A DNA stretch of 64,000 bases from Euryarchaeota archaeon UBA125. Its GTDB lineage: Archaea > Thermoplasmatota > Poseidoniia > Poseidoniales > Thalassarchaeaceae. The stretch is taken from assembly GCA_002502625.1 (NCBI GenBank), contig DAPV01000035.1, positions 6,279-70,278 of the forward strand, written 5' to 3'. Shown here one piece after another: positions 24,576 to 55,813 of this stretch. The notes under the pieces are model-generated. The model did not search any database and was not told where the DNA came from. It saw only the letters and a program-made list of their open reading frames with translations. How positions within the stretch are numbered: position 1 is the first letter of the stretch; each line of letters begins with the position of its first letter. The translations under genes were made by a program, and so were the position numbers.

Positions 24576-25007
24576 TCATTCTTCCTCATCCGATAGTCCA
24601 CTAACAAAAACTAGTCTAGCATATATCGCCATCAACATCATCAACATTCCAGATACAGTCAATATCAAGGATGTTGGCTCTGCAAATAATGATTGAAGCA
24701 TTGAGTTCCCAATTAACCAAGATAACATTAATGTCGCAATACTAGCAAGTAATATTCTAGAGATTGATCGGTGCGGTTTGGACCAGAGATGAAGAGCGGG
24801 AATTAATCCGTGGAAGCCGAAAGTTCTAGCATACCATGCTCGATAAAGTAGTGTAAGGCCAATTAGCCCTAAAACACCCCTAGTGAAATCTACATCACCC
24901 CATGGGCCTGCGAATCCAACACCAAAAGAAAGTGTATTTAGAACCAAAATCAAGCCAATTAGAACTTCAAAACGGATATCAATCGGTTCAAATGGATGTT
25001 GGCCCAT
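24576..25007 (-). CDS. Hypothetical 4-TM membrane protein
   Basis: Hydrophobic helices throughout. Abuts the rnhA stop. Confidence 0.4.
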   Translation of the reverse strand: MGQHPFEPIDIRFEVLIGLILVLNTLSFGVGFAGPWGDVDFTRGVLGLIGLTLLYRAWYARTFGFHGLIPALHLWSKPHRSISRILLASIATLMLSWLIGNSMLQSLFAEPTSLILTVSGMLMMLMAIYARLVFVSGLSDEEE

Positions 25008-25088
25008 ATATGCTGGATACCAACTAGATTCATGATTTCATCGATTGATTTTGTCGGATTTATATCCCCTGCGTATATTCTAGTAGTT

Positions 25089-25958
25089 ATGGACGAAGGT
25101 GGTTTGCAAATACATATTGTTGGAGCGGGTGGAATCGGATCAAATTTAATTGCATTATTACTGCCCTCATTAAGAAACGGAATTATTGCTAATCAATTGG
25201 GTGGAATCTCTTTCCATCTACATGATGCAGATATGGTAGAAGAAAAAAATTTGGTGCACCAACGTTTTACAGAGTCGCATATTAACATGCCTAAAGTCGA
25301 TGCTTTGGCTATGGAATTTAATTTAATTCATCCAAATGTACGTGTTATAGGACATTCAACCAATCTTAGATCTTCTGAGCCTCTTAGAAATGCAAATATC
25401 ATAATAGTAGCTGTGGATAGACCCGAGCCACGCAGAATTGTACATTCTCTAAGAAATGTAGAATGGTATGATTTGAGATGTGGACTTGATTCATGTCTCG
25501 TACTCACTCATGAAACTCATCTTGATGATATAGAAAGATTGACTCCTGAACACAAACCAGCTAGCTGTCAACCAGATGGTGCTATTGAAAGTGGTAATAT
25601 TCAATTTGGTTCTGCTTTAGCAGGAACATTTGGTGCCAATATCATTCTGAGGTCACTCATGAATAGAATAGGTAACAAAACGAATATCCCTGGTCCCGTT
25701 TGTTTTTCGATGGACATGGGAATGATACCTGTTTTCATACAAACAAAAAATACAGTTCCATTTAGTCAACAGCCACCAAAACGTCCTACTCATCTATGGT
25801 CAGAAAAAGAAGATGTGCAATTGCTTGAACAAGCAAAAAGGGGGTTAACTCTGGAAAGAGTTGCGAGTCATCATCAAAGATCTCCTGGGGCAATTTGGCA
25901 TAGACTTCTAAAAATTACAGGAATAAGAAAAGCATTAGATTCTGAGGCAGGTGAGTAA
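25089..25958 (+). CDS. Minimal E1-like (ThiF/MoeB-fold) adenylyltransferase with C-terminal Myb/SANT-like motif
   Basis: IHIVGAGGIGSN (nucleotide loop), ..LHDADMVEEKNLVHQRF.. (E1 Asp/Arg motif). No CxxC zinc pairs. C-terminal WSEKEDVQLLEQAKRGLTLERVASHHQRSPGAIWHRL. Confidence 0.65.
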   Translation: MDEGGLQIHIVGAGGIGSNLIALLLPSLRNGIIANQLGGISFHLHDADMVEEKNLVHQRFTESHINMPKVDALAMEFNLIHPNVRVIGHSTNLRSSEPLRNANIIIVAVDRPEPRRIVHSLRNVEWYDLRCGLDSCLVLTHETHLDDIERLTPEHKPASCQPDGAIESGNIQFGSALAGTFGANIILRSLMNRIGNKTNIPGPVCFSMDMGMIPVFIQTKNTVPFSQQPPKRPTHLWSEKEDVQLLEQAKRGLTLERVASHHQRSPGAIWHRLLKITGIRKALDSEAGE

Positions 25959-26435
25959 ATGGAACTTTCTTCAAATTCAGTACTAAAAATGTGTGAGAAA
26001 ATTCAAAGTGGGAAAGCTAAGGATGTCGAAATAAAGCAAATTCTAGTTGAACTTGGAAATCAAAAAAGATGGGCAGAAATGTGGGGTATTAGTCATGCCC
26101 TTAGAGTAGAAATAAGTTGGATTAAAGATGCTAAAAATGATGTTTGGGTAGATATTGGAACTGCTGGTGAGGTCACGTTAAATCCGCCAATCGGTGCTCA
26201 ACTACCGTTTCAATTATGGATTCATACTCATCCATGGAATGCATATTGGAGTATTACCGACCTTCGAACATTAGCAAAGTTTTGTGGTCTGATTCAAGAA
26301 GCATTGGTTTTAGGGCATGATCATAGTAAGCATACAGTATGTAAGTTACCATTTGGTCATTCATTAGAAGAGGGTGTAGAACCCCTATCAACTTGGACCG
26401 ACGAACCATGTATTCCCTATGAGGTATCAAAATGA
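25959..26435 (+). CDS. JAB/JAMM-family metalloprotease (deubiquitinase-like)
   Basis: JAMM motif WIHTHPWNAYWSITD (H-x-H-x7-S-x2-D) with upstream Glu. ATG immediately follows the E1 stop. Confidence 0.7.
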   Translation: MELSSNSVLKMCEKIQSGKAKDVEIKQILVELGNQKRWAEMWGISHALRVEISWIKDAKNDVWVDIGTAGEVTLNPPIGAQLPFQLWIHTHPWNAYWSITDLRTLAKFCGLIQEALVLGHDHSKHTVCKLPFGHSLEEGVEPLSTWTDEPCIPYEVSK

Positions 26436-26671
26436 AAATTCGAATTCCTGATGATGATGAAGGTAAAGACATTCGTAACATAATTGTGGGAAACGATATT
26501 GGAATTGGTTTGAAGAAGTGGCTAAAAATGCAGATGGATATTGAAGCGGATGATGCATTAATAGATGCATTGATCATGTATTTCGAAGCATGTAAACTAG
26601 CTGGACTAGAATTTGTAGATATTGAAGAGGCCATCATATCACATAATAAATGGCAAAATGATTCTATGTAG
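26432..26671 (+). CDS. Small acidic hypothetical protein translationally coupled to the JAB gene
   Basis: ATGA overlap with the JAB stop. 79 aa, no GG terminus. Confidence 0.35.
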   Translation: MKIRIPDDDEGKDIRNIIVGNDIGIGLKKWLKMQMDIEADDALIDALIMYFEACKLAGLEFVDIEEAIISHNKWQNDSM

Positions 26672-26736
26672 TTTGGACCTTAGTATAAGTAGTCCCTAGA
26701 AAGATATTCAAATATGGTGTCGATTAGTGAATAATT

Positions 26737-27345
26737 GTGTCAAACAAGTATCCAGTTGAAATCGAACGGAAATTTTTGGTTCATTGTATTCCAATAAACC
26801 TTCAAAATAGTACTCATCTGAGACAATGGTACATTCCTTCATCGTTGATTGAATATAAAAATAAAATTACCCTAAATGAATTAGAATTAGTTTCAGAAGT
26901 AAAAAATGAATGGCAAAGTAAGGTTCGTGAATTAATCAACCTTGAAAATACTACAATTCGGATACGAATAGATAACAAGTCTGCAATTCTATGTATCAAA
27001 GGAAAAACAAAAGGAATTTCTAGAATGGAATTTGAATGGGAATTGCAAAATTATTCAGTTATAGAAGAATTACTTGTAGAATCAAATTGGCCCATGGTGG
27101 AAAAACAGCGATGGGAGATAATAGCAGAAGATGGGCATTTGTGGGAATTAGATCAGTTTCTAGGATTGAATGAGGGGTTATGGCTCACTGAAATTGAGCT
27201 TGCTAATGAAAATGATGATTTCGTATGTCCTAATTGGGTTGGTTCAGATGTTTCTCAAGATCGAAGGTTTTCATCAAAACAGTTGGCTAAAAATCCGTAT
27301 GTTGAATTCAAAGAAGATCAATTAAGACCACTGAGAAAATGTTAA
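26737..27345 (+). CDS. CYTH-domain triphosphate-tunnel metalloenzyme (CyaB/ThTPase-like)
   Basis: N-terminal VEIERKFLV (ExExK motif) and size about 200 aa with alternating charged beta-strands. Confidence 0.55.
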   Translation: MSNKYPVEIERKFLVHCIPINLQNSTHLRQWYIPSSLIEYKNKITLNELELVSEVKNEWQSKVRELINLENTTIRIRIDNKSAILCIKGKTKGISRMEFEWELQNYSVIEELLVESNWPMVEKQRWEIIAEDGHLWELDQFLGLNEGLWLTEIELANENDDFVCPNWVGSDVSQDRRFSSKQLAKNPYVEFKEDQLRPLRKC

Positions 27346-27512
27346 TTTTGAAGGGTTTAAATACCCTCGATACTAAATTACATTCCTGTTGAGAACTAAT
27401 CGATTTCTATAGGAATTGTAAGAAATTGGATTAGAAAATAGGATTCGAGGGAAAAGTTCAAGCACCTTACTCATCTGAATCCAATTTCCTGGCGGCGAAA
27501 AGAGGTGAACAT

Positions 27513-28646
27513 ATGGAGATAAAAGAGAATTGTATAGAATGTGGTAGCGATAAATTTGAACATGATGATGTAAGAGCTGAATATCATTGCACTATTTGTG
27601 GATGTATTGTTGAAGACCAATTAGATGATAATGTGACCCAATTCATGAATAGTGAAGGTCAGATAGAGAGAGAGATGAATTCTAACAGACTCGGAGGTGA
27701 TGAAACTAAAACATGGGCTTCCACAAGAGATGCTGCGGGCAGACCTGTTGTATACAATAGACAAAAGAGGTTGAGAAATAGTAGATTTGACAGAAATTCG
27801 AGGGCTGAAAGAACTTGGTTGAAAACTGATGTTGAGCGTTTTATCGATTCACCTAATATGCCAGGCTCTAGAACAATGAAGACTCTTGCAAAGAAGATTC
27901 TTGCCCAAACCCACTCTGTAGAGGAACACGAGAAAAGAAGAGGTAATTCTGTGATGTGGGAGGCAATGAAAAATGTGAATAATGGAGAAGATGTTCCTCT
28001 ACCACTCAATCAAACAAGACATGCTCAGAAAACTGGGAACGACGATACTAGAAATGGGAATTATTCAACAAGAATGGTAGCAATAGCTGTCATGAATATA
28101 GCCGCTAGAATTATGGGAATTGCTCTACCAACAAAGCAATTGTCGACTGCATTCGATGTTCGTCATGATCATTTGACTAGAGAGTCAATGAATATCACGA
28201 AATATCTTACAATTATTTGGAAAGCCGACAATTTGATTGTTGAACAAGGAAACCAGAGTCAGTCTCTACCTAGAATAGGAATTTCACCAGGAATGCTTAG
28301 CGAAGGAAGAACGTGGAGTGAAGAAGACATTCGTGCTGCTATTGATGAATTAAGACCTTCATTGGAAGAAAGATTTGGAACAATGACTGCCAGATTAATG
28401 ATTACAGAGATTTGGGCAATGCTAGAAGAAGCGAAAAGTCATGCTTATCTCTCAGGACAGAATATCAGATTAGTTACTGCAGGCCTAACTGTGCGTTCAA
28501 CAAAAGCAAGAGGACAATCAAGACTTAAGCAAAGAATTGCGGAATTGTTAGGAATTACCACAAATAGACTGAAAAGACTTGAGAAAGATTACAGTTTAGT
28601 CATTGATGGAATTTTCAATAATCATCATGTACCAACTGATGCATAA
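27513..28646 (+). CDS. Divergent TFIIB/TFB-family paralogue
   Basis: N-terminal TFIIB-type Zn ribbon NCIECGSDKFEHDDVRAEYHCTICGCIVEDQ (cf. canonical [12 protein letters not shown]...[10 protein letters not shown] at 54749-55675). C-terminal HTH ..QRIAELLGITTNRLKRLEK. The middle part is highly diverged. Confidence 0.55.
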   Translation: MEIKENCIECGSDKFEHDDVRAEYHCTICGCIVEDQLDDNVTQFMNSEGQIEREMNSNRLGGDETKTWASTRDAAGRPVVYNRQKRLRNSRFDRNSRAERTWLKTDVERFIDSPNMPGSRTMKTLAKKILAQTHSVEEHEKRRGNSVMWEAMKNVNNGEDVPLPLNQTRHAQKTGNDDTRNGNYSTRMVAIAVMNIAARIMGIALPTKQLSTAFDVRHDHLTRESMNITKYLTIIWKADNLIVEQGNQSQSLPRIGISPGMLSEGRTWSEEDIRAAIDELRPSLEERFGTMTARLMITEIWAMLEEAKSHAYLSGQNIRLVTAGLTVRSTKARGQSRLKQRIAELLGITTNRLKRLEKDYSLVIDGIFNNHHVPTDA

Positions 28647-28735
28647 TATCTTGATTGATATACTCTGGAGATACTATACAGATGTCTTAGGACGTAAAAC
28701 GAATGATTTCGAACGCTAACAAGGAGGAAGAATAC

Positions 28736-28954
28736 ATGAGTAATATTACATTGCGCATCGTTAACGAATCTGGTGATACAATAATGAATTCTCTAAGTGA
28801 AGCCCAGCTTCGCCAAGAGATTTCTACACTCGACAATGAAAAGTGGATTTTTGTGGATGGTCGCATGGTCAACCGCAGTGAATTGGCTAATGTCGAGGTA
28901 GCAGACAATGCTACAGTAATCGTAACGCCAAAGATTGTTGCCGGGCGCGTCTGA
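28736..28954 (+). CDS. ThiS/MoaD-like beta-grasp (ubiquitin-like) protein with non-GG C-terminus
   Basis: MSNITLRIVNESGDTI...WIFVDGRMVNRSELANVEVADNATVIVTPKIVAGRV aligns in my reading to ThiS (..VQDGDQILLFQVIAGG). AGGAGG 8 nt upstream of the ATG. Confidence 0.45.
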   Translation: MSNITLRIVNESGDTIMNSLSEAQLRQEISTLDNEKWIFVDGRMVNRSELANVEVADNATVIVTPKIVAGRV

Positions 28955-29046
28955 ACATCAATCTAAGCCCCTTAGGGCACATGGGCTTGTCCCAGTCCTC
29001 GATCAAGAAATCGATTCTTCCTTTTCTTTGATCGAATCCTTTCCAT

Positions 29047-54748: not shown

Positions 54749-55675
54749 TCAAATTTCAAGTTCGATATTTAGATTCTGAATTAATTCCTTGTATCTATTT
54801 CGAATTGTGACTTCAGTAACTCCTGCAACCTCTGCAACCTCACGTTGCGTACGTCGTTTACCACACAGGACTGAAGCAATATAGATAATCGATGCTGCAA
54901 TACCAGTTGGACCTCTTCCTGATGTCAATTCTTTCTCTTGTGCTCTTTGAATCAACTCATATGCCTTTGATTGGACTTCTGCATCTAGATCTAAACCACT
55001 ACAGAAACGAGGGATGTACATCTCTGGTGTAGTTGGTGGTATTTTCATCTTCAATTCTCGGACCATGAATCGATATGTGCGTCCGATTTCTTTTCTACCA
55101 GTTCTACTAGCTGTACTAATTTCATCTAATGTTCTAGGATTTCCACACTGCCTACAAGCAGCATACAAACTGGCTGCTGCTACACCTTCAATGGATCTGC
55201 CACGAATTAATCGGGCCTCTACTGCACGTTTGTAATTAACAGCAGCAGCTTCGCGAATTGACTTTGGAAGATTCAATCGGCTAGCCATTCTATCTAATTC
55301 AGCTAACGCCATAGCTAGGTTTCGCTCAGTTGCATTACTAACTCTACTTCTCTTTTGCCACTTTCTCATTCTGTAAAATTGGCTACGATAACGACTGCTG
55401 ATTGTTTTTCCAGAATAATCTTTGTTTTGCCAATCAATATCGGTGGAAAGTCCCTTATCGTGAAGCATAACTGTCATTGGTGCACCGGTTCTAGCCCTTT
55501 GATCTCCTTGTTCTGGACTAAAAACACGCCATTCTGCACCTTGATCGATTACGTTATCTTCCACAACTAGACCACAAACAGCACAGACAATTTCACCCCT
55601 TGTCTCGTCACGATCTAGGTCGCGGCTTCCACATTCTGGGCATTTTACGATGTCTTCTACTTGAGGGTCTGACAT
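54749..55675 (-). CDS. tfb: Transcription initiation factor TFB
   Basis: Zn ribbon [10 protein letters not shown]...[10 protein letters not shown], two cyclin repeats, C-terminal HTH ..[19 protein letters not shown]... Start set at MSDPQV (the ORF track extends to 55735). Confidence 0.9.
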
Positions 55676-55689
55676 ATTGATTATCTCCA

Positions 55690-55730
55690 AAGATATTATA
55701 CACTCGAATAATTCTCTCTTATAAATCTTT
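55690..55730 (-). promoter_or_regulatory. Putative TATA/BRE region for tfb
   Basis: Minus strand ..AAAGATTTATAAGAGAGAATTATTCGAGTGTATAATATCTTTGGAGATAATCAATATG. Two TATA-like elements 20-45 nt upstream of the ATG. Confidence 0.3.
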
Positions 55731-55813
55731 TTCAAAATAATGACCGATTTTTAAGCAACAGATTATTCATTTCTTTGAATTGAATCACGGCCAAGGTCAA
55801 ATAGAGTCAGTCC

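Follow-up and report, generated by a model that had tools for sequence, protein, structure and literature searches.

A ubiquitin-like protein, a minimal E1 and a JAMM protease encoded together with a divergent TFB paralog in Poseidoniales

Six genes running in the same direction lie at positions 25089-28954 of the window, by which we mean the whole 64,000-nucleotide stretch of DNA that was analysed. The first, g1 (25089-25958), begins at an internal ATG within an open reading frame that opens at 24996, and encodes an E1-like enzyme. It is followed by genes for a JAMM/MPN+ (JAB) metalloprotease of 158 residues (g2, 25959-26435), a 79-residue acidic protein (g3, 26432-26671), a CYTH, or triphosphate-tunnel, metalloenzyme of 202 residues (g4, 26737-27345), a highly divergent TFB paralog of 377 residues (g5, 27513-28646) and a ubiquitin-like (Ubl) beta-grasp protein (g6, reading frame from 28703, probable ATG at 28736, end at 28954), all on the + strand. 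The ATG of g2 abuts the TAA stop codon of the E1 gene with no gap, and g3 starts within the stop codon of g2 in an ATGA overlap, so that g1, g2 and g3 are translationally coupled. The intergenic gaps are 65 nt between g3 and g4, 167 nt between g4 and g5, and 56 nt between g5 and g6. As read from the sequence, a TATA-box-like TTTATAT (25059-25065, +), which precedes the start codon of the E1 gene by approximately 24 nt, is a candidate archaeal promoter of the operon, and an inverted repeat, AAGCCC...GGGCTT (28965-28988), between the convergent g6 and methyltransferase genes, possibly marks the end of the transcription unit.

The E1-like adenylation domain (residues 1-226, 25089-25766, +) is a minimal ThiF fold that matches Pfam ThiF at 3.8e-12, and its family profile matches MccB, UBA6, UBA3, Uba4, ThiF and MoeB across the Rossmann core. 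Its scores against the NCBIfam models for ThiF, PRTRC-ThiF, MoeB and UbaA fall far under the respective cut-offs (for UbaA, 20.9 bits against 450). The invariant residues of the family include GxGGxG, D46, D48, N54, K69, D110, C131 and C160, and the only cysteines of g1, at positions 131, 136, 160 and 205, form no CxxC pair. The remainder of the protein (residues 227-289, 25767-25958, +) is a Myb/SANT-like helix-turn-helix tail that ends in a clade-conserved E[AV]GE. The E1 tail of an ortholog passes the Pfam Myb_DNA-binding gathering cut-off (1.6e-6, 28.5 bits against 24.4), and precomputed PF00249 matches exist for the E1 homologs P0014, P0016, P0019 and P0023; the window's own tail, searched alone, has no Pfam match.

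The adjacent protease, g2, also has no Pfam match; its JAMM motif (E47...H85-T-H87...S94-x-x-D97) is invariant in 14 of 14 diverse homologs, and at this motif the family profile gives weak matches to AMSH-like, Rpn11-like and BilC proteins (E from 1e-3 to 1). The 79-residue product of g3 (pI 4.4), which we read as helical from its sequence, has no match in Pfam, PHROG, NCBIfam, PADLOC or PDB. Its homologs are limited to close relatives, those that are annotated belonging to Marine Group II, and within the family W74 alone is near-invariant.

For g6, the most likely start is the ATG at 28736 (MSNITL..., 72 residues) and not the opening of the reading frame at 28703, since a GGAGG Shine-Dalgarno-like motif lies just upstream and the orthologs start there. 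A beta-grasp fold is predicted by a model built on a three-row alignment, and the protein ends in ...KIVAG-RV. Other Ubls of the family carry GG or AG followed by one to eight variable residues, or continue directly into the E1 or another protein. Tails that extend past GG/AG would need processing, for which the conserved set offers no protease other than JAB. Natural fusions prove the Ubl-E1 link and connect both with JAB: homologs of 395-420 residues join E1 to JAB, and a Ubl-Ubl-E1 protein (P0030) contains Ubl domains that align with g6 through the GG/AG end.

The g5 product begins with a C4 zinc ribbon (C7, C10, C26, C29), followed by a disordered stretch resembling a reader/linker and then by cyclin-fold helical repeats (residues about 102-377). 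At the sequence level, only the TFB zinc ribbon is detected; the TFIIB repeat model of Pfam does not recognise g5, whose match to genuine TFB is limited to the ribbon. The cyclin/TFIIB fold is predicted by a moderately confident model (pLDDT 70, pTM 0.46, 16-row alignment), and viral intermediates, described below, also tie g5 to TFB. The remaining enzyme, g4, carries an ExExK motif (E8-I-E10-R-K12) and scores just under the Pfam CYTH cut-off (1.1e-4, 22.5 bits against 23.2). Basic and acidic tunnel residues are invariant in its family, whose profile matches the NeuTTM structures 3TYP and 2FBL at 2e-20 and the Saci_0718 TTM at 2e-3; by sequence, g4 most resembles inorganic triphosphatases, its nearest solved relatives being of the NeuTTM type and not class IV cyclases. 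A sequence-only reading of the locus had anticipated much of this, namely six same-direction genes with three translationally coupled, a ThiF-fold E1 that has a Myb/SANT-like tail but no CxxC pairs, a JAMM protease, an acidic 79-residue protein, a CYTH enzyme, a divergent TFIIB-type factor and a ThiS/MoaD-like beta-grasp protein ending in AG-RV, and each of these assignments agrees with the evidence above.

The same reading had named conserved gene neighbourhood as one test of whether the cluster is real. The core of Ubl, E1, JAB and 79-residue protein is kept in about 50 genome loci of Poseidoniales (Marine Group II), spanning both families, and in 80 metagenome loci, often with E1 fused to JAB or Ubl-Ubl fused to E1. 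The 79-residue protein is part of this universal core in host loci: in about 41 of them, and in the majority of metagenome loci, its gene comes directly after JAB. A TFB paralog lies directly downstream of the core in 23 genome loci, as it does in about 33 of the 37 metagenome loci that could be evaluated. In a rearranged locus (L003/L016), the TFB-like and Ubl genes have moved as a pair, some 6 kb from E1-JAB-79; in L040/L045, a zf-TFIIB protein comes after g3; and in other clades different zinc-ribbon proteins (f32, f3) occupy the neighbouring position. The linkage to TFB and Ubl is not universal, since Poseidoniaceae loci of the E1-JAB-79 type have neither gene within 10 kb. Only loci of the window's own subclade, about 10 in all, have the CYTH gene; every other host version of the module lacks it.

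This clustering goes far beyond chance expectation. That housekeeping SAMP/ThiS genes merely happen to sit beside genes for a TFB and a CYTH enzyme is hardly credible: the intergenic gaps do leave room for separate promoters and the cluster is split in L003, but gene order holds even where E1 identity falls to 43-49%, and it recurs in viruses, so that synteny already contradicts such a reading, the fusions join Ubl, E1 and JAB, and a second, genuine TFB gene is encoded elsewhere in the window. Inheritance of the module is vertical throughout the order, with monophyletic host E1s.

Related Ubl, TFB-like, E1 and JAB genes occur together in 49 magrovirus-like viral contigs, which resemble viruses of these archaea, in the order TFB-like, E1, a variable gene and JAB. 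The TFB-like gene is present in 46 of the 49 loci, and about half of the contigs have a recognisable Ubl gene 1-5 kb upstream; counterparts of g3 and of the CYTH gene are absent from all of them. Neighbouring genes encode a class II RNR, GroEL and an ATP-dependent ligase, a setting that matches described magroviruses (PMC5434244). The host family profiles match the viral Ubl, TFB-like, E1 and JAB proteins at 1e-25, 1e-15, 1e-41 and 1e-27, respectively, and one further family (viral v3, host f32/f3) is common to both. The viral TFB-like proteins stand far nearer than the host g5 family to genuine TFB, with clear homology in the magrovirus-like contigs (hhalign 99.1%, E 5e-19, 261 columns). These similarities, together with GC that is slightly lower between 26 and 28 kb (0.358, compared with about 0.39), would fit a magrovirus takeover cassette that the host has domesticated, or a means of decoying or countering viral TFB/Ubl, in place of a regulator of host transcription. 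We regard this as doubtful, as a rough NJ tree places host E1s and viral E1s in separate clades and gives no sign of recent exchange, the host core is sited among housekeeping genes and kept in both Poseidoniales families, and its surroundings contain no integrase or capsid gene. Its mechanism would in any case overlap with the one that we prefer, and only the purpose would differ.

The earlier comparison with CBASS Cap2/Cap3 or Bil systems is not supported. A conjugation system for antiviral defence or nucleotide signalling, akin to CBASS type II or Bil, in which the CYTH enzyme would make or destroy a nucleotide signal and the E1 and JAB proteins would prime or reset it, draws on weak matches of the E1 domain to PADLOC Cap2-type 'E1-E2' models (3e-8 and weaker) and to NCBIfam 6A-MBL cap2_3, on CYTH relatives in phages (phrog_6660, 9e-17) and on the magrovirus-like contigs, which show that the system matters in virus-host biology. 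We consider it quite unlikely, because the cluster has no E2 domain, CD-NTase or effector, PADLOC is silent for JAB, Ubl, g3, CYTH and g5, and vertical, order-wide inheritance is unlike that of scattered defence islands. The associated proposal of nucleotide signalling is likewise unsupported, given the confinement of CYTH to one subclade and its likeness to inorganic triphosphatases.

A sulfur-carrier pathway, with a Ubl of the ThiS/MoaD/CysO/QbsE type that the E1 would adenylate and thiocarboxylate, and a JAB protein that would trim it like QbsD or hydrolyse an adduct like Mec+, is in our judgement very unlikely. No sulfurtransferase, rhodanese, ThiG, MoaE, CysM, NcsA/TtuA or biosynthetic gene was found in the about 50 host, 80 metagenome and 49 viral loci, where the conserved neighbours are instead the TFB paralog and zinc-ribbon proteins. 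The E1 lacks a CxxC zinc site and scores as low as noted above for ThiF, MoeB and UbaA, and tandem Ubl-Ubl and Ubl-protein fusions typify modifiers, not carriers. With no E2, CD-NTase, sulfur-transfer or defence-effector genes accompanying it, the cluster fits neither CBASS, Bil, the ThiS/MoaD pathway nor canonical SAMP/UbaA.

Together, the observed domain identities, fusions, conserved gene order and viral counterpart lead us to favour, on balance, a Poseidoniales-specific system of Ubl conjugation and deconjugation, with no E2 in the locus, that is functionally coupled to an alternative TFB. This upholds the initial view of a non-canonical E1, JAB and Ubl module, of which we found no prior description. 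The initial reading had missed the place of the 79-residue protein in the universal core, the proof of the Ubl-E1 link that the fusions give, and the related module of magrovirus-like viruses. What follows on enzymology, target and direction of regulation is inferred throughout, with conjugation to proteins proposed by analogy. The Ubl would be made as a precursor ending in ...VAG-RV, and the JAMM protease would cut off the extension and expose the terminal glycine, which the minimal E1 would adenylate with ATP. The Ubl would then probably be held as a thioester on the invariant Cys160, which lies about 50 residues past the Mg-binding Asp110, at the position of the crossover-loop cysteine of ThiF/MoeB. 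With no E2 in the locus, its transfer to target lysines would be direct, in the manner of archaeal sampylation and urmylation, or would be assisted by the 79-residue partner, and the same JAMM enzyme would undo the modification. The JAMM residues, the nucleotide-binding residues of the E1 and C160 are all invariant, in keeping with catalysis; the NLVHQR motif of the E1, where NLxRQ is canonical, counts against the favoured reading, as does a window Ubl that ends in AG and not GG.

The TFB paralog may be the main substrate, or an adaptor that takes the machinery to RNA polymerase or a promoter, where the Myb/SANT-like tail of the E1 could help to tether it; no acceptor site can be named in the TFB-like family, which has no invariant Lys. 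The CYTH triphosphatase would be a late, clade-specific accessory. The suggestion, made at the outset, that the system is wired to transcription fits the recurrence of TFB paralogs in host genome, metagenome and viral loci and their pairing with the Ubl in L003; the E1 tail and the zf-TFIIB protein of L040/L045 are further ties to DNA or transcription. A precedent comes from Haloferax, in which the general factor TBP2 undergoes proteasomal turnover as a result of its sampylation (PMC4895103). The host operon and the related viral set suggest protein tagging aimed at transcription start.

Among known systems, archaeal sampylation (SAMP1-3/UbaA/HvJAMM1 of Haloferax volcanii) and Urm1/Uba4 urmylation resemble the module: a beta-grasp modifier with a C-terminal glycine is served by one E1-like enzyme, E2 and E3 are lacking, and one JAMM protease both processes the modifier and takes it off again. 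Sampylation is also known to act on a general transcription factor, TBP2 (PMC4895103). The module differs in an E1 that is not UbaA/MoeB-like, in its tight operon, in the added 79-residue protein, TFB paralog, E1 Myb-like tail and, in the window's clade, CYTH, and in a Ubl that forms its own family, with tandem and E1 fusions and no link to sulfur metabolism. Bacterial CBASS type II (Cap2/Cap3), Bil (BilABCD) and Bub operons likewise unite an E1 domain with a JAB peptidase, Bil and Bub including a Ubl that may be tandem, and Cap2, BilA and BilC are among the weak profile or structural matches. Unlike these, the present module is archaeal, vertically inherited and linked to a TFB paralog, and lacks an E2 domain, CD-NTase and effector. 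The eukaryote-like ubiquitin operon of Caldiarchaeum/Aigarchaeota (Ub, E1, E2, RING E3, Rpn11), in which a JAMM/Rpn11-type protease trims a Ub-like precursor past its glycines (PMC6043591), is also an archaeal operon pairing such a precursor with a JAMM-type protease, whereas the module has no E2 or RING E3, its E1 is a minimal single-domain ThiF fold, and sequence comparison does not recognise its Ubl as ubiquitin (per-domain E about 1; hhalign 9%). The CysO/Mec+, QbsE/QbsD and ThiS-ThiF/MoaD-MoeB pairs share a minimal E1, a beta-grasp carrier and JAB trimming of a short C-terminal extension; they differ from the module in their sulfur-transfer or biosynthetic partners, where its conserved neighbours are of the transcription-factor type. 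CYTH triphosphatases of the NeuTTM/CthTTM type share the ExExK motif and tunnel residues with g4, which has in addition an insertion of about 35 residues past the first strand and an operonic association with a Ubl system. Finally, alternative archaeal TFB paralogs and virus-encoded TFB/TFIIB proteins share with g5 the zinc ribbon, flexible linker and cyclin-fold repeats, whereas g5 resembles genuine TFB in sequence at the ribbon only and is always set in a Ubl/E1/JAB operon.

The six genes lie co-directionally, as the sequence-only reading had claimed, as plus-strand open reading frames at window positions 25089-28954: an E1-like enzyme (g1), a JAB protein with a JAMM motif (g2), a 79-aa protein (g3), a CYTH protein (g4), a TFB paralog (g5) and a ubiquitin-like (Ubl) protein (g6). 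The g1 start is the ATG at 25089, internal to a longer open reading frame, and by sequence reading a TATA-like TTTATAT (25059-25065) is located 24 nt upstream of it. The proposed translational coupling was also borne out, as the g1 stop directly abuts the g2 ATG and the g2 stop and g3 start overlap as ATGA. Gaps of 65 nt (g3-g4), 167 nt (g4-g5) and 56 nt (g5-g6) separate the remaining genes. Shine-Dalgarno-like motifs precede g5 and g6; given this motif and the starts of its orthologs, g6 is likely to begin at ATG 28736 and to encode a 72-aa product. The G+C content of the window is ~39%, with a mild fall to 0.358 across 26-28 kb. A palindrome, GGGTTTAAATACCC (27353-27366), lies right behind the g4 stop codon and might fold into a hairpin or else provide a TATA-like element (TTTAAATA) within the gap ahead of g5. 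Divergent from g1, a minus-strand gene (24576-25007) encodes a predicted membrane protein of 143 aa without a Pfam match, which is found upstream of E1 in 11 loci. Its copy in locus L003 (9579-10139, plus strand) follows the 79-aa gene in the same orientation, and the protein may be a loosely associated component.

We examined the gene neighborhood, a check that had been suggested for this cluster, by scanning one genome per species with E1 and applying iterated HMMs of all six proteins to every locus. The genome scan gave ~54 loci in Poseidoniales, where both families were represented, and a metagenome scan with a Ubl alignment as seed gave 80 more. The E1 homologs carried the names Marine Group II or Thalassarchaeaceae, and outside Poseidoniales the same genome scan returned remote E1-only matches and nothing more. 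JAB follows E1 in every locus where the contig extends far enough, the 79-aa gene is directly behind JAB in ~41 loci, Ubl is present in ~36, mostly immediately 5' of E1, and a TFB-ribbon protein of 330-410 aa is directly downstream in 23. The subclade that includes the window has its Ubl positioned after the TFB-like gene, and in Poseidoniaceae loci the Ubl and TFB-like gene were not found nearby. Among metagenome loci with enough sequence, ~33 of 37 have the order Ubl - E1(/JAB) - 79 - TFB-like, after which come one or two genes that run convergently and belong to another family.

Two host loci, L003 and L016 (E1 43% identical), are rearranged such that E1-JAB-79 is split from the TFB-like and Ubl pair, which remains intact beside an AhpC gene. 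Genes for an Eco57I-type restriction-modification protein and for two TerB proteins occur a few kb from the module at L003/L004:12734-15672; nothing like them was seen beside the window's cluster. In two loci with an E1/JAB fusion, the gene after the 79-aa gene (L040:2296-2763, L045:2057-2548) encodes a further zinc-ribbon neighbor of ~150 aa, which matches Pfam zf-TFIIB (PF13453, 5.5e-9) and is hydrophobic at its C-terminus. The full module also appears in three MAGs labelled bacterial (L026, Crocinitomicaceae; L044, Acidimicrobiaceae; L060, Phycisphaerae). These are probably mis-binned marine archaeal contigs, and L060, the most divergent, could be a real transfer. No sulfur-transfer, cofactor, thiolation, E2, CD-NTase or effector genes were found in the host loci examined. 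A sulfur-carrier pathway therefore looks unlikely, because its partner enzymes are missing.

The product of g1 is E1-like by Pfam ThiF (3.8e-12, over the gathering score), with a predicted Rossmann-type ATP-binding fold, a GxGxxG motif, the Asp/Asn/Lys phosphate set and the Mg-binding Asp that characterize E1-like enzymes. Specifically, the ATP-binding set G12xG14G15xG17, D46, D48, N54, K69 and D110 is conserved across 21 homologs (G17 in at least 90%), and the protein carries NLVHQR instead of NLxRQ. The family profile matched many E1 structures in the PDB over the Rossmann core only, and g1 falls far under all of the curated NCBIfam cut-offs tested (ThiF, PRTRC-ThiF, MoeB, UbaA). An E1 without CxxC pairs had been predicted, and the cysteines of g1 are indeed only at 131, 136, 160 and 205. 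C131 and C160 are invariant across the family; C160, a candidate crossover-loop cysteine for a thioester or acyl-disulfide, is 50 residues past D110 and matches ThiF C184 and MoeB C187 by spacing alone. The predicted Myb/SANT-like tail was likewise recovered, in the ~60 C-terminal residues, as a helix-turn-helix. The tail of an ortholog scores above the Pfam gathering threshold, and several homologs have a precomputed PF00249 annotation; the window's own tail is too divergent for a Pfam match. This tail occurs in the window's subclade, the same clade that carries CYTH. The E1 C-terminus in this clade ends in a conserved E-[AV]-G-E after variable residues (window 25941-25955; proteins P0002 and P0010-P0023), which resembles the Ubl's own ...VAG-xx end. 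This end might serve JAB as a further site, or be used for auto-conjugation.

Within g2, the E...HxH...S..D motif expected of the claimed JAMM metalloprotease is present, and E47, H85, H87, S94 and D97 are invariant across 14 diverse homologs, with 6-7 residues from the second His to the Ser; the protein is thus a putative JAMM protease. No Pfam model matched g2 itself. Its family profile weakly matches AMSH, Rpn11-like and BilC proteins at the JAMM motif (E 1e-3 to 1), and a viral homolog matches Pfam Prok-JAB at 0.004. The 79-aa protein is acidic (pI 4.4), looks helical from sequence and has no match in Pfam, PHROG, NCBIfam or PADLOC. Its profile retrieved nothing from the PDB under E 0.02, and a search of 1.84 billion representative proteins yielded close homologs only, plus a spurious repeat protein, P0138. 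A ribbon-helix-helix identity, an idea taken from a G-x-S pattern, was rejected (hhalign probability 0.7% against six such proteins).

The g6 product is assigned by its predicted fold to the Ubl/ThiS-MoaD superfamily, whose members combine a beta-grasp with a flexible tail and a C-terminal glycine; its beta-grasp model, built on a three-row alignment, is of moderate confidence, as is the model of g5. Alignment of the Ubl family by hhalign with ubiquitin (9%), E. coli ThiS (5%) and SAMP2 (13%) brings the C-termini into register, and none of the three is discriminating. Strong E-values between the Ubl and polyubiquitin arise because repeats are summed. The family C-termini read PGLVGG followed by 1-8 variable residues, with GG in most members and VAG plus two residues in the window's clade; other family Ubls continue into E1 or another protein. 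These extensions call for an endoprotease, and JAB is the sole protease in the conserved set. In protein P0030, two tandem N-terminal domains that are alignable with g6 and end in ...LVGG precede an E1, and E1 homologs of 395-420 aa carry a C-terminal g2-type JAB domain. As judged from these Ubl-E1 and E1-JAB fusions, Ubl, E1 and JAB act together.

Natural polyproteins take the form Ubl-Ubl-E1, or Ubl-Ubl followed by a ~313-aa domain without assignment, and on large viral contigs a single Ubl is joined at its GG to C-terminal proteins of ~150-200 aa (L005/L025:8001-9116; L036:8487-9992; L048:8586-9992; L067:4668-5498; L143:4744-5454). Such polyproteins resemble ubiquitin fusion precursors.

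The CYTH assignment of g4 was upheld by its ExExK motif and charged tunnel residues. Invariant across the family are E8, E10, R11, R75, R77, K88, E98, E122, K123, E152 and E154, and K12 of ExExK is present in the window's protein and most orthologs; Pfam CYTH scores just below the cut-off. The family profile matches the NeuTTM structures 3TYP/2FBL at 2e-20, which together with the invariant residues places g4, by sequence, closest to inorganic triphosphatases and not to class IV cyclases. The sequence-only reading had noted that the CYTH family includes class IV adenylyl cyclases; the solved relatives of g4 are the NeuTTM and Saci_0718 triphosphatases, with no CyaB structure among the matches up to E 1. 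CYTH is limited to the subclade of the window, in which E1 identity is at least 49%, and occurs there in ~10 loci.

The fifth gene carries an N-terminal C4 zinc ribbon of the TFB/TFIIB family (C7, C10, C26 and C29, the last conserved in at least 90%). It matches Pfam PF08271 at 1.1e-4 (22.1 bits against a cut-off of 29) and the structure 1PFT at 1.3e-5. A genuine TFB is encoded elsewhere in the window (54749-55735, minus strand; Pfam TFIIB repeats 2e-48, zinc ribbon 1e-16), and g5 is therefore an extra, divergent paralog. The two align by hhalign at 94%, with the likeness confined to the ribbon and the stretch following it. The TFB-like family lacks any invariant lysine.

We then scanned IMG/VR with the E1 alignment, which identified 80 loci (L067-L146) of 25-31% identity. 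Host-derived HMMs match both E1 (~1e-40) and JAB (~1e-25) in 49 of these, with a TFB-like gene (~285 aa) directly upstream of E1 in 46 of the 49. About half (22 in the main family) have a 68-aa Ubl ending in ...IVGG (~1e-24), 1-5 kb upstream of E1. The array is co-directional and encodes a ~405-aa protein, the TFB homolog, a minimal E1 of ~185 aa, a variable gene and a JAB of ~190 aa (e.g., L116:688-7880). Its neighbors encode class II ribonucleotide reductase, a GroEL-type chaperonin and ATP-dependent DNA ligase, in agreement with the replicative gene block of magroviruses as described by Philosof et al. (PMC5434244). On the basis of IMG/VR and these markers we consider the loci viral and magrovirus-like; no capsid genes were seen within their 12-kb stretches. 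One paper notes that genomes of archaeal viruses commonly carry ThiF/MoeB genes (PMC8276007). The viral TFB-like proteins align with the window's TFB at 99.1% (hhalign; E 5e-19, 261 columns) and with the g5 family at 97.7% (E 1.4e-12, 164 columns covering ribbon, linker and first cyclin repeat). By these alignments they are clear TFB homologs that bridge g5 to TFB. Viral loci are without CYTH and without the 79-aa protein, for which HMM and hhalign comparison gave no counterpart among the small conserved viral open reading frames. Searches of INPHARED phage records by tblastn with the window E1 and a viral TFB-like protein gave no match. Host and viral E1s form distinct clades in a rough neighbor-joining tree, which indicates that the sharing of the module is old.

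In a second viral group (L067, L068, L070, L094-L100, L102, L104-L108, L115-L120, L126, L136, L143-L145; some contigs 130-206 kb), E1 is directly preceded by a Ubl, and neither JAB nor a TFB-like gene was seen within 12 kb. The E1s of this group branch as a clade of their own in the same tree.

A further protein family accompanies the module and is absent from the entire window. In hosts, its members are found upstream of Ubl (f32, ~430 aa) or as two convergent genes behind the TFB-like gene (f3, ~550-650 aa); the viral form (v3) precedes the viral TFB. Examples are L027:22-1311, L030:755-3635, L053:12575-15908 (minus strand) and L069:4165-5415. These proteins share a Cys-rich N-terminus and a C-terminal motif, G..ICID...P.GD..AS..L.L.ND, with an invariant Cys that aligns in register with the active-site cysteine of the UBC ICLD motif, an alignment that is non-significant (hhalign 1.1%). 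The family profile retrieved nothing from the PDB. A hidden E2 is possible from the register of this cysteine.

Together, these observations are best supported as an E2-independent Ubl conjugation/deconjugation system coupled to an alternative TFB. The sequence-only reading had left a choice between nucleotide signalling and a system wired to transcription. The cluster is confirmed and its link to transcription holds, with a TFB paralog in 23 host, ~33 of 37 metagenome and 46 of 49 viral loci; the link to nucleotide signalling fails, given a triphosphatase-like CYTH in only ~10 loci. The Myb-like tail and the zinc-ribbon proteins of other clades point likewise to a role at the initiation complex. 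Beyond the observed domains, fusions, synteny and viral counterpart, we infer the following chemistry and target. JAB would trim the Ubl precursor to its mature form; E1 would adenylate the Ubl and probably carry it through a thioester bond at C160; from E1 the Ubl would pass to targets, and JAB would undo the modification. The TFB paralog may be a substrate, or an adaptor to the initiation complex. That a Ubl can control a general transcription factor has a precedent in the sampylation of TBP2 in Haloferax (PMC4895103).

More tentatively, and with our own confidence leaning to the doubtful side, Marine Group II and magroviruses would each possess a Ubl/minimal E1/JAMM machine with a TFB-family factor as an integral part, Ubl conjugation would be a dedicated switch of transcription initiation, and virus and host would compete over this switch. 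Judging from the magrovirus-like contigs, viruses may use Ubl tagging to control transcription or protein turnover in the host. If true, prokaryotes would have their own equivalent of ubiquitin control over general transcription factors, evolved without E2/E3 or with an unrecognized E2-like protein of the f3/f32/v3 family; if real, it would also add a lineage-wide regulatory layer in a globally important archaeal group. What merits attention is the presence of a TFB paralog, the universal occurrence of the 79-aa partner and the parallel between virus and host; within the literature searched, this would be the first prokaryotic Ubl system whose operon includes a paralog of a general transcription factor as a constant member. 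Its size of three to six genes, natural fusions and many variants make direct reconstitution possible, with relevance to how E2-independent conjugation works and to the pre-eukaryotic origin of ubiquitin-type regulation of transcription.

Literature searches returned no description of the operon in Poseidoniales, nor of the module or array in magroviruses, and we compared the cluster with known systems. Pfam and PADLOC detected no UBC-like gene in it. For type II CBASS, the E1 domain matches Cap2 models, with no E2 part and zero PADLOC matches for the other five proteins. Bil (BilABCD) and Bub both need a separate E2, which the cluster lacks, and it is not a Caldiarchaeum-type Ub operon because it has neither E2 nor RING. 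A PRTRC cassette was also rejected (PRTRC_ThiF 46.5 bits against a cut-off of 144.75; remaining PRTRC models without a match). The SAMP/UbaA system differs in its E1, since g1 scores 20.9 bits against the NCBIfam SAMPActivE1UbaA cut-off of 450 and has no CxxC, and described SAMP loci lack some components present here. The cluster shares with it a beta-grasp modifier, ending in AG plus two residues instead of GG, and a JAMM protease, with no E2/E3. In its working, the system is nearest to sampylation and urmylation, which likewise use a single E1 and a JAMM protease and no E2.
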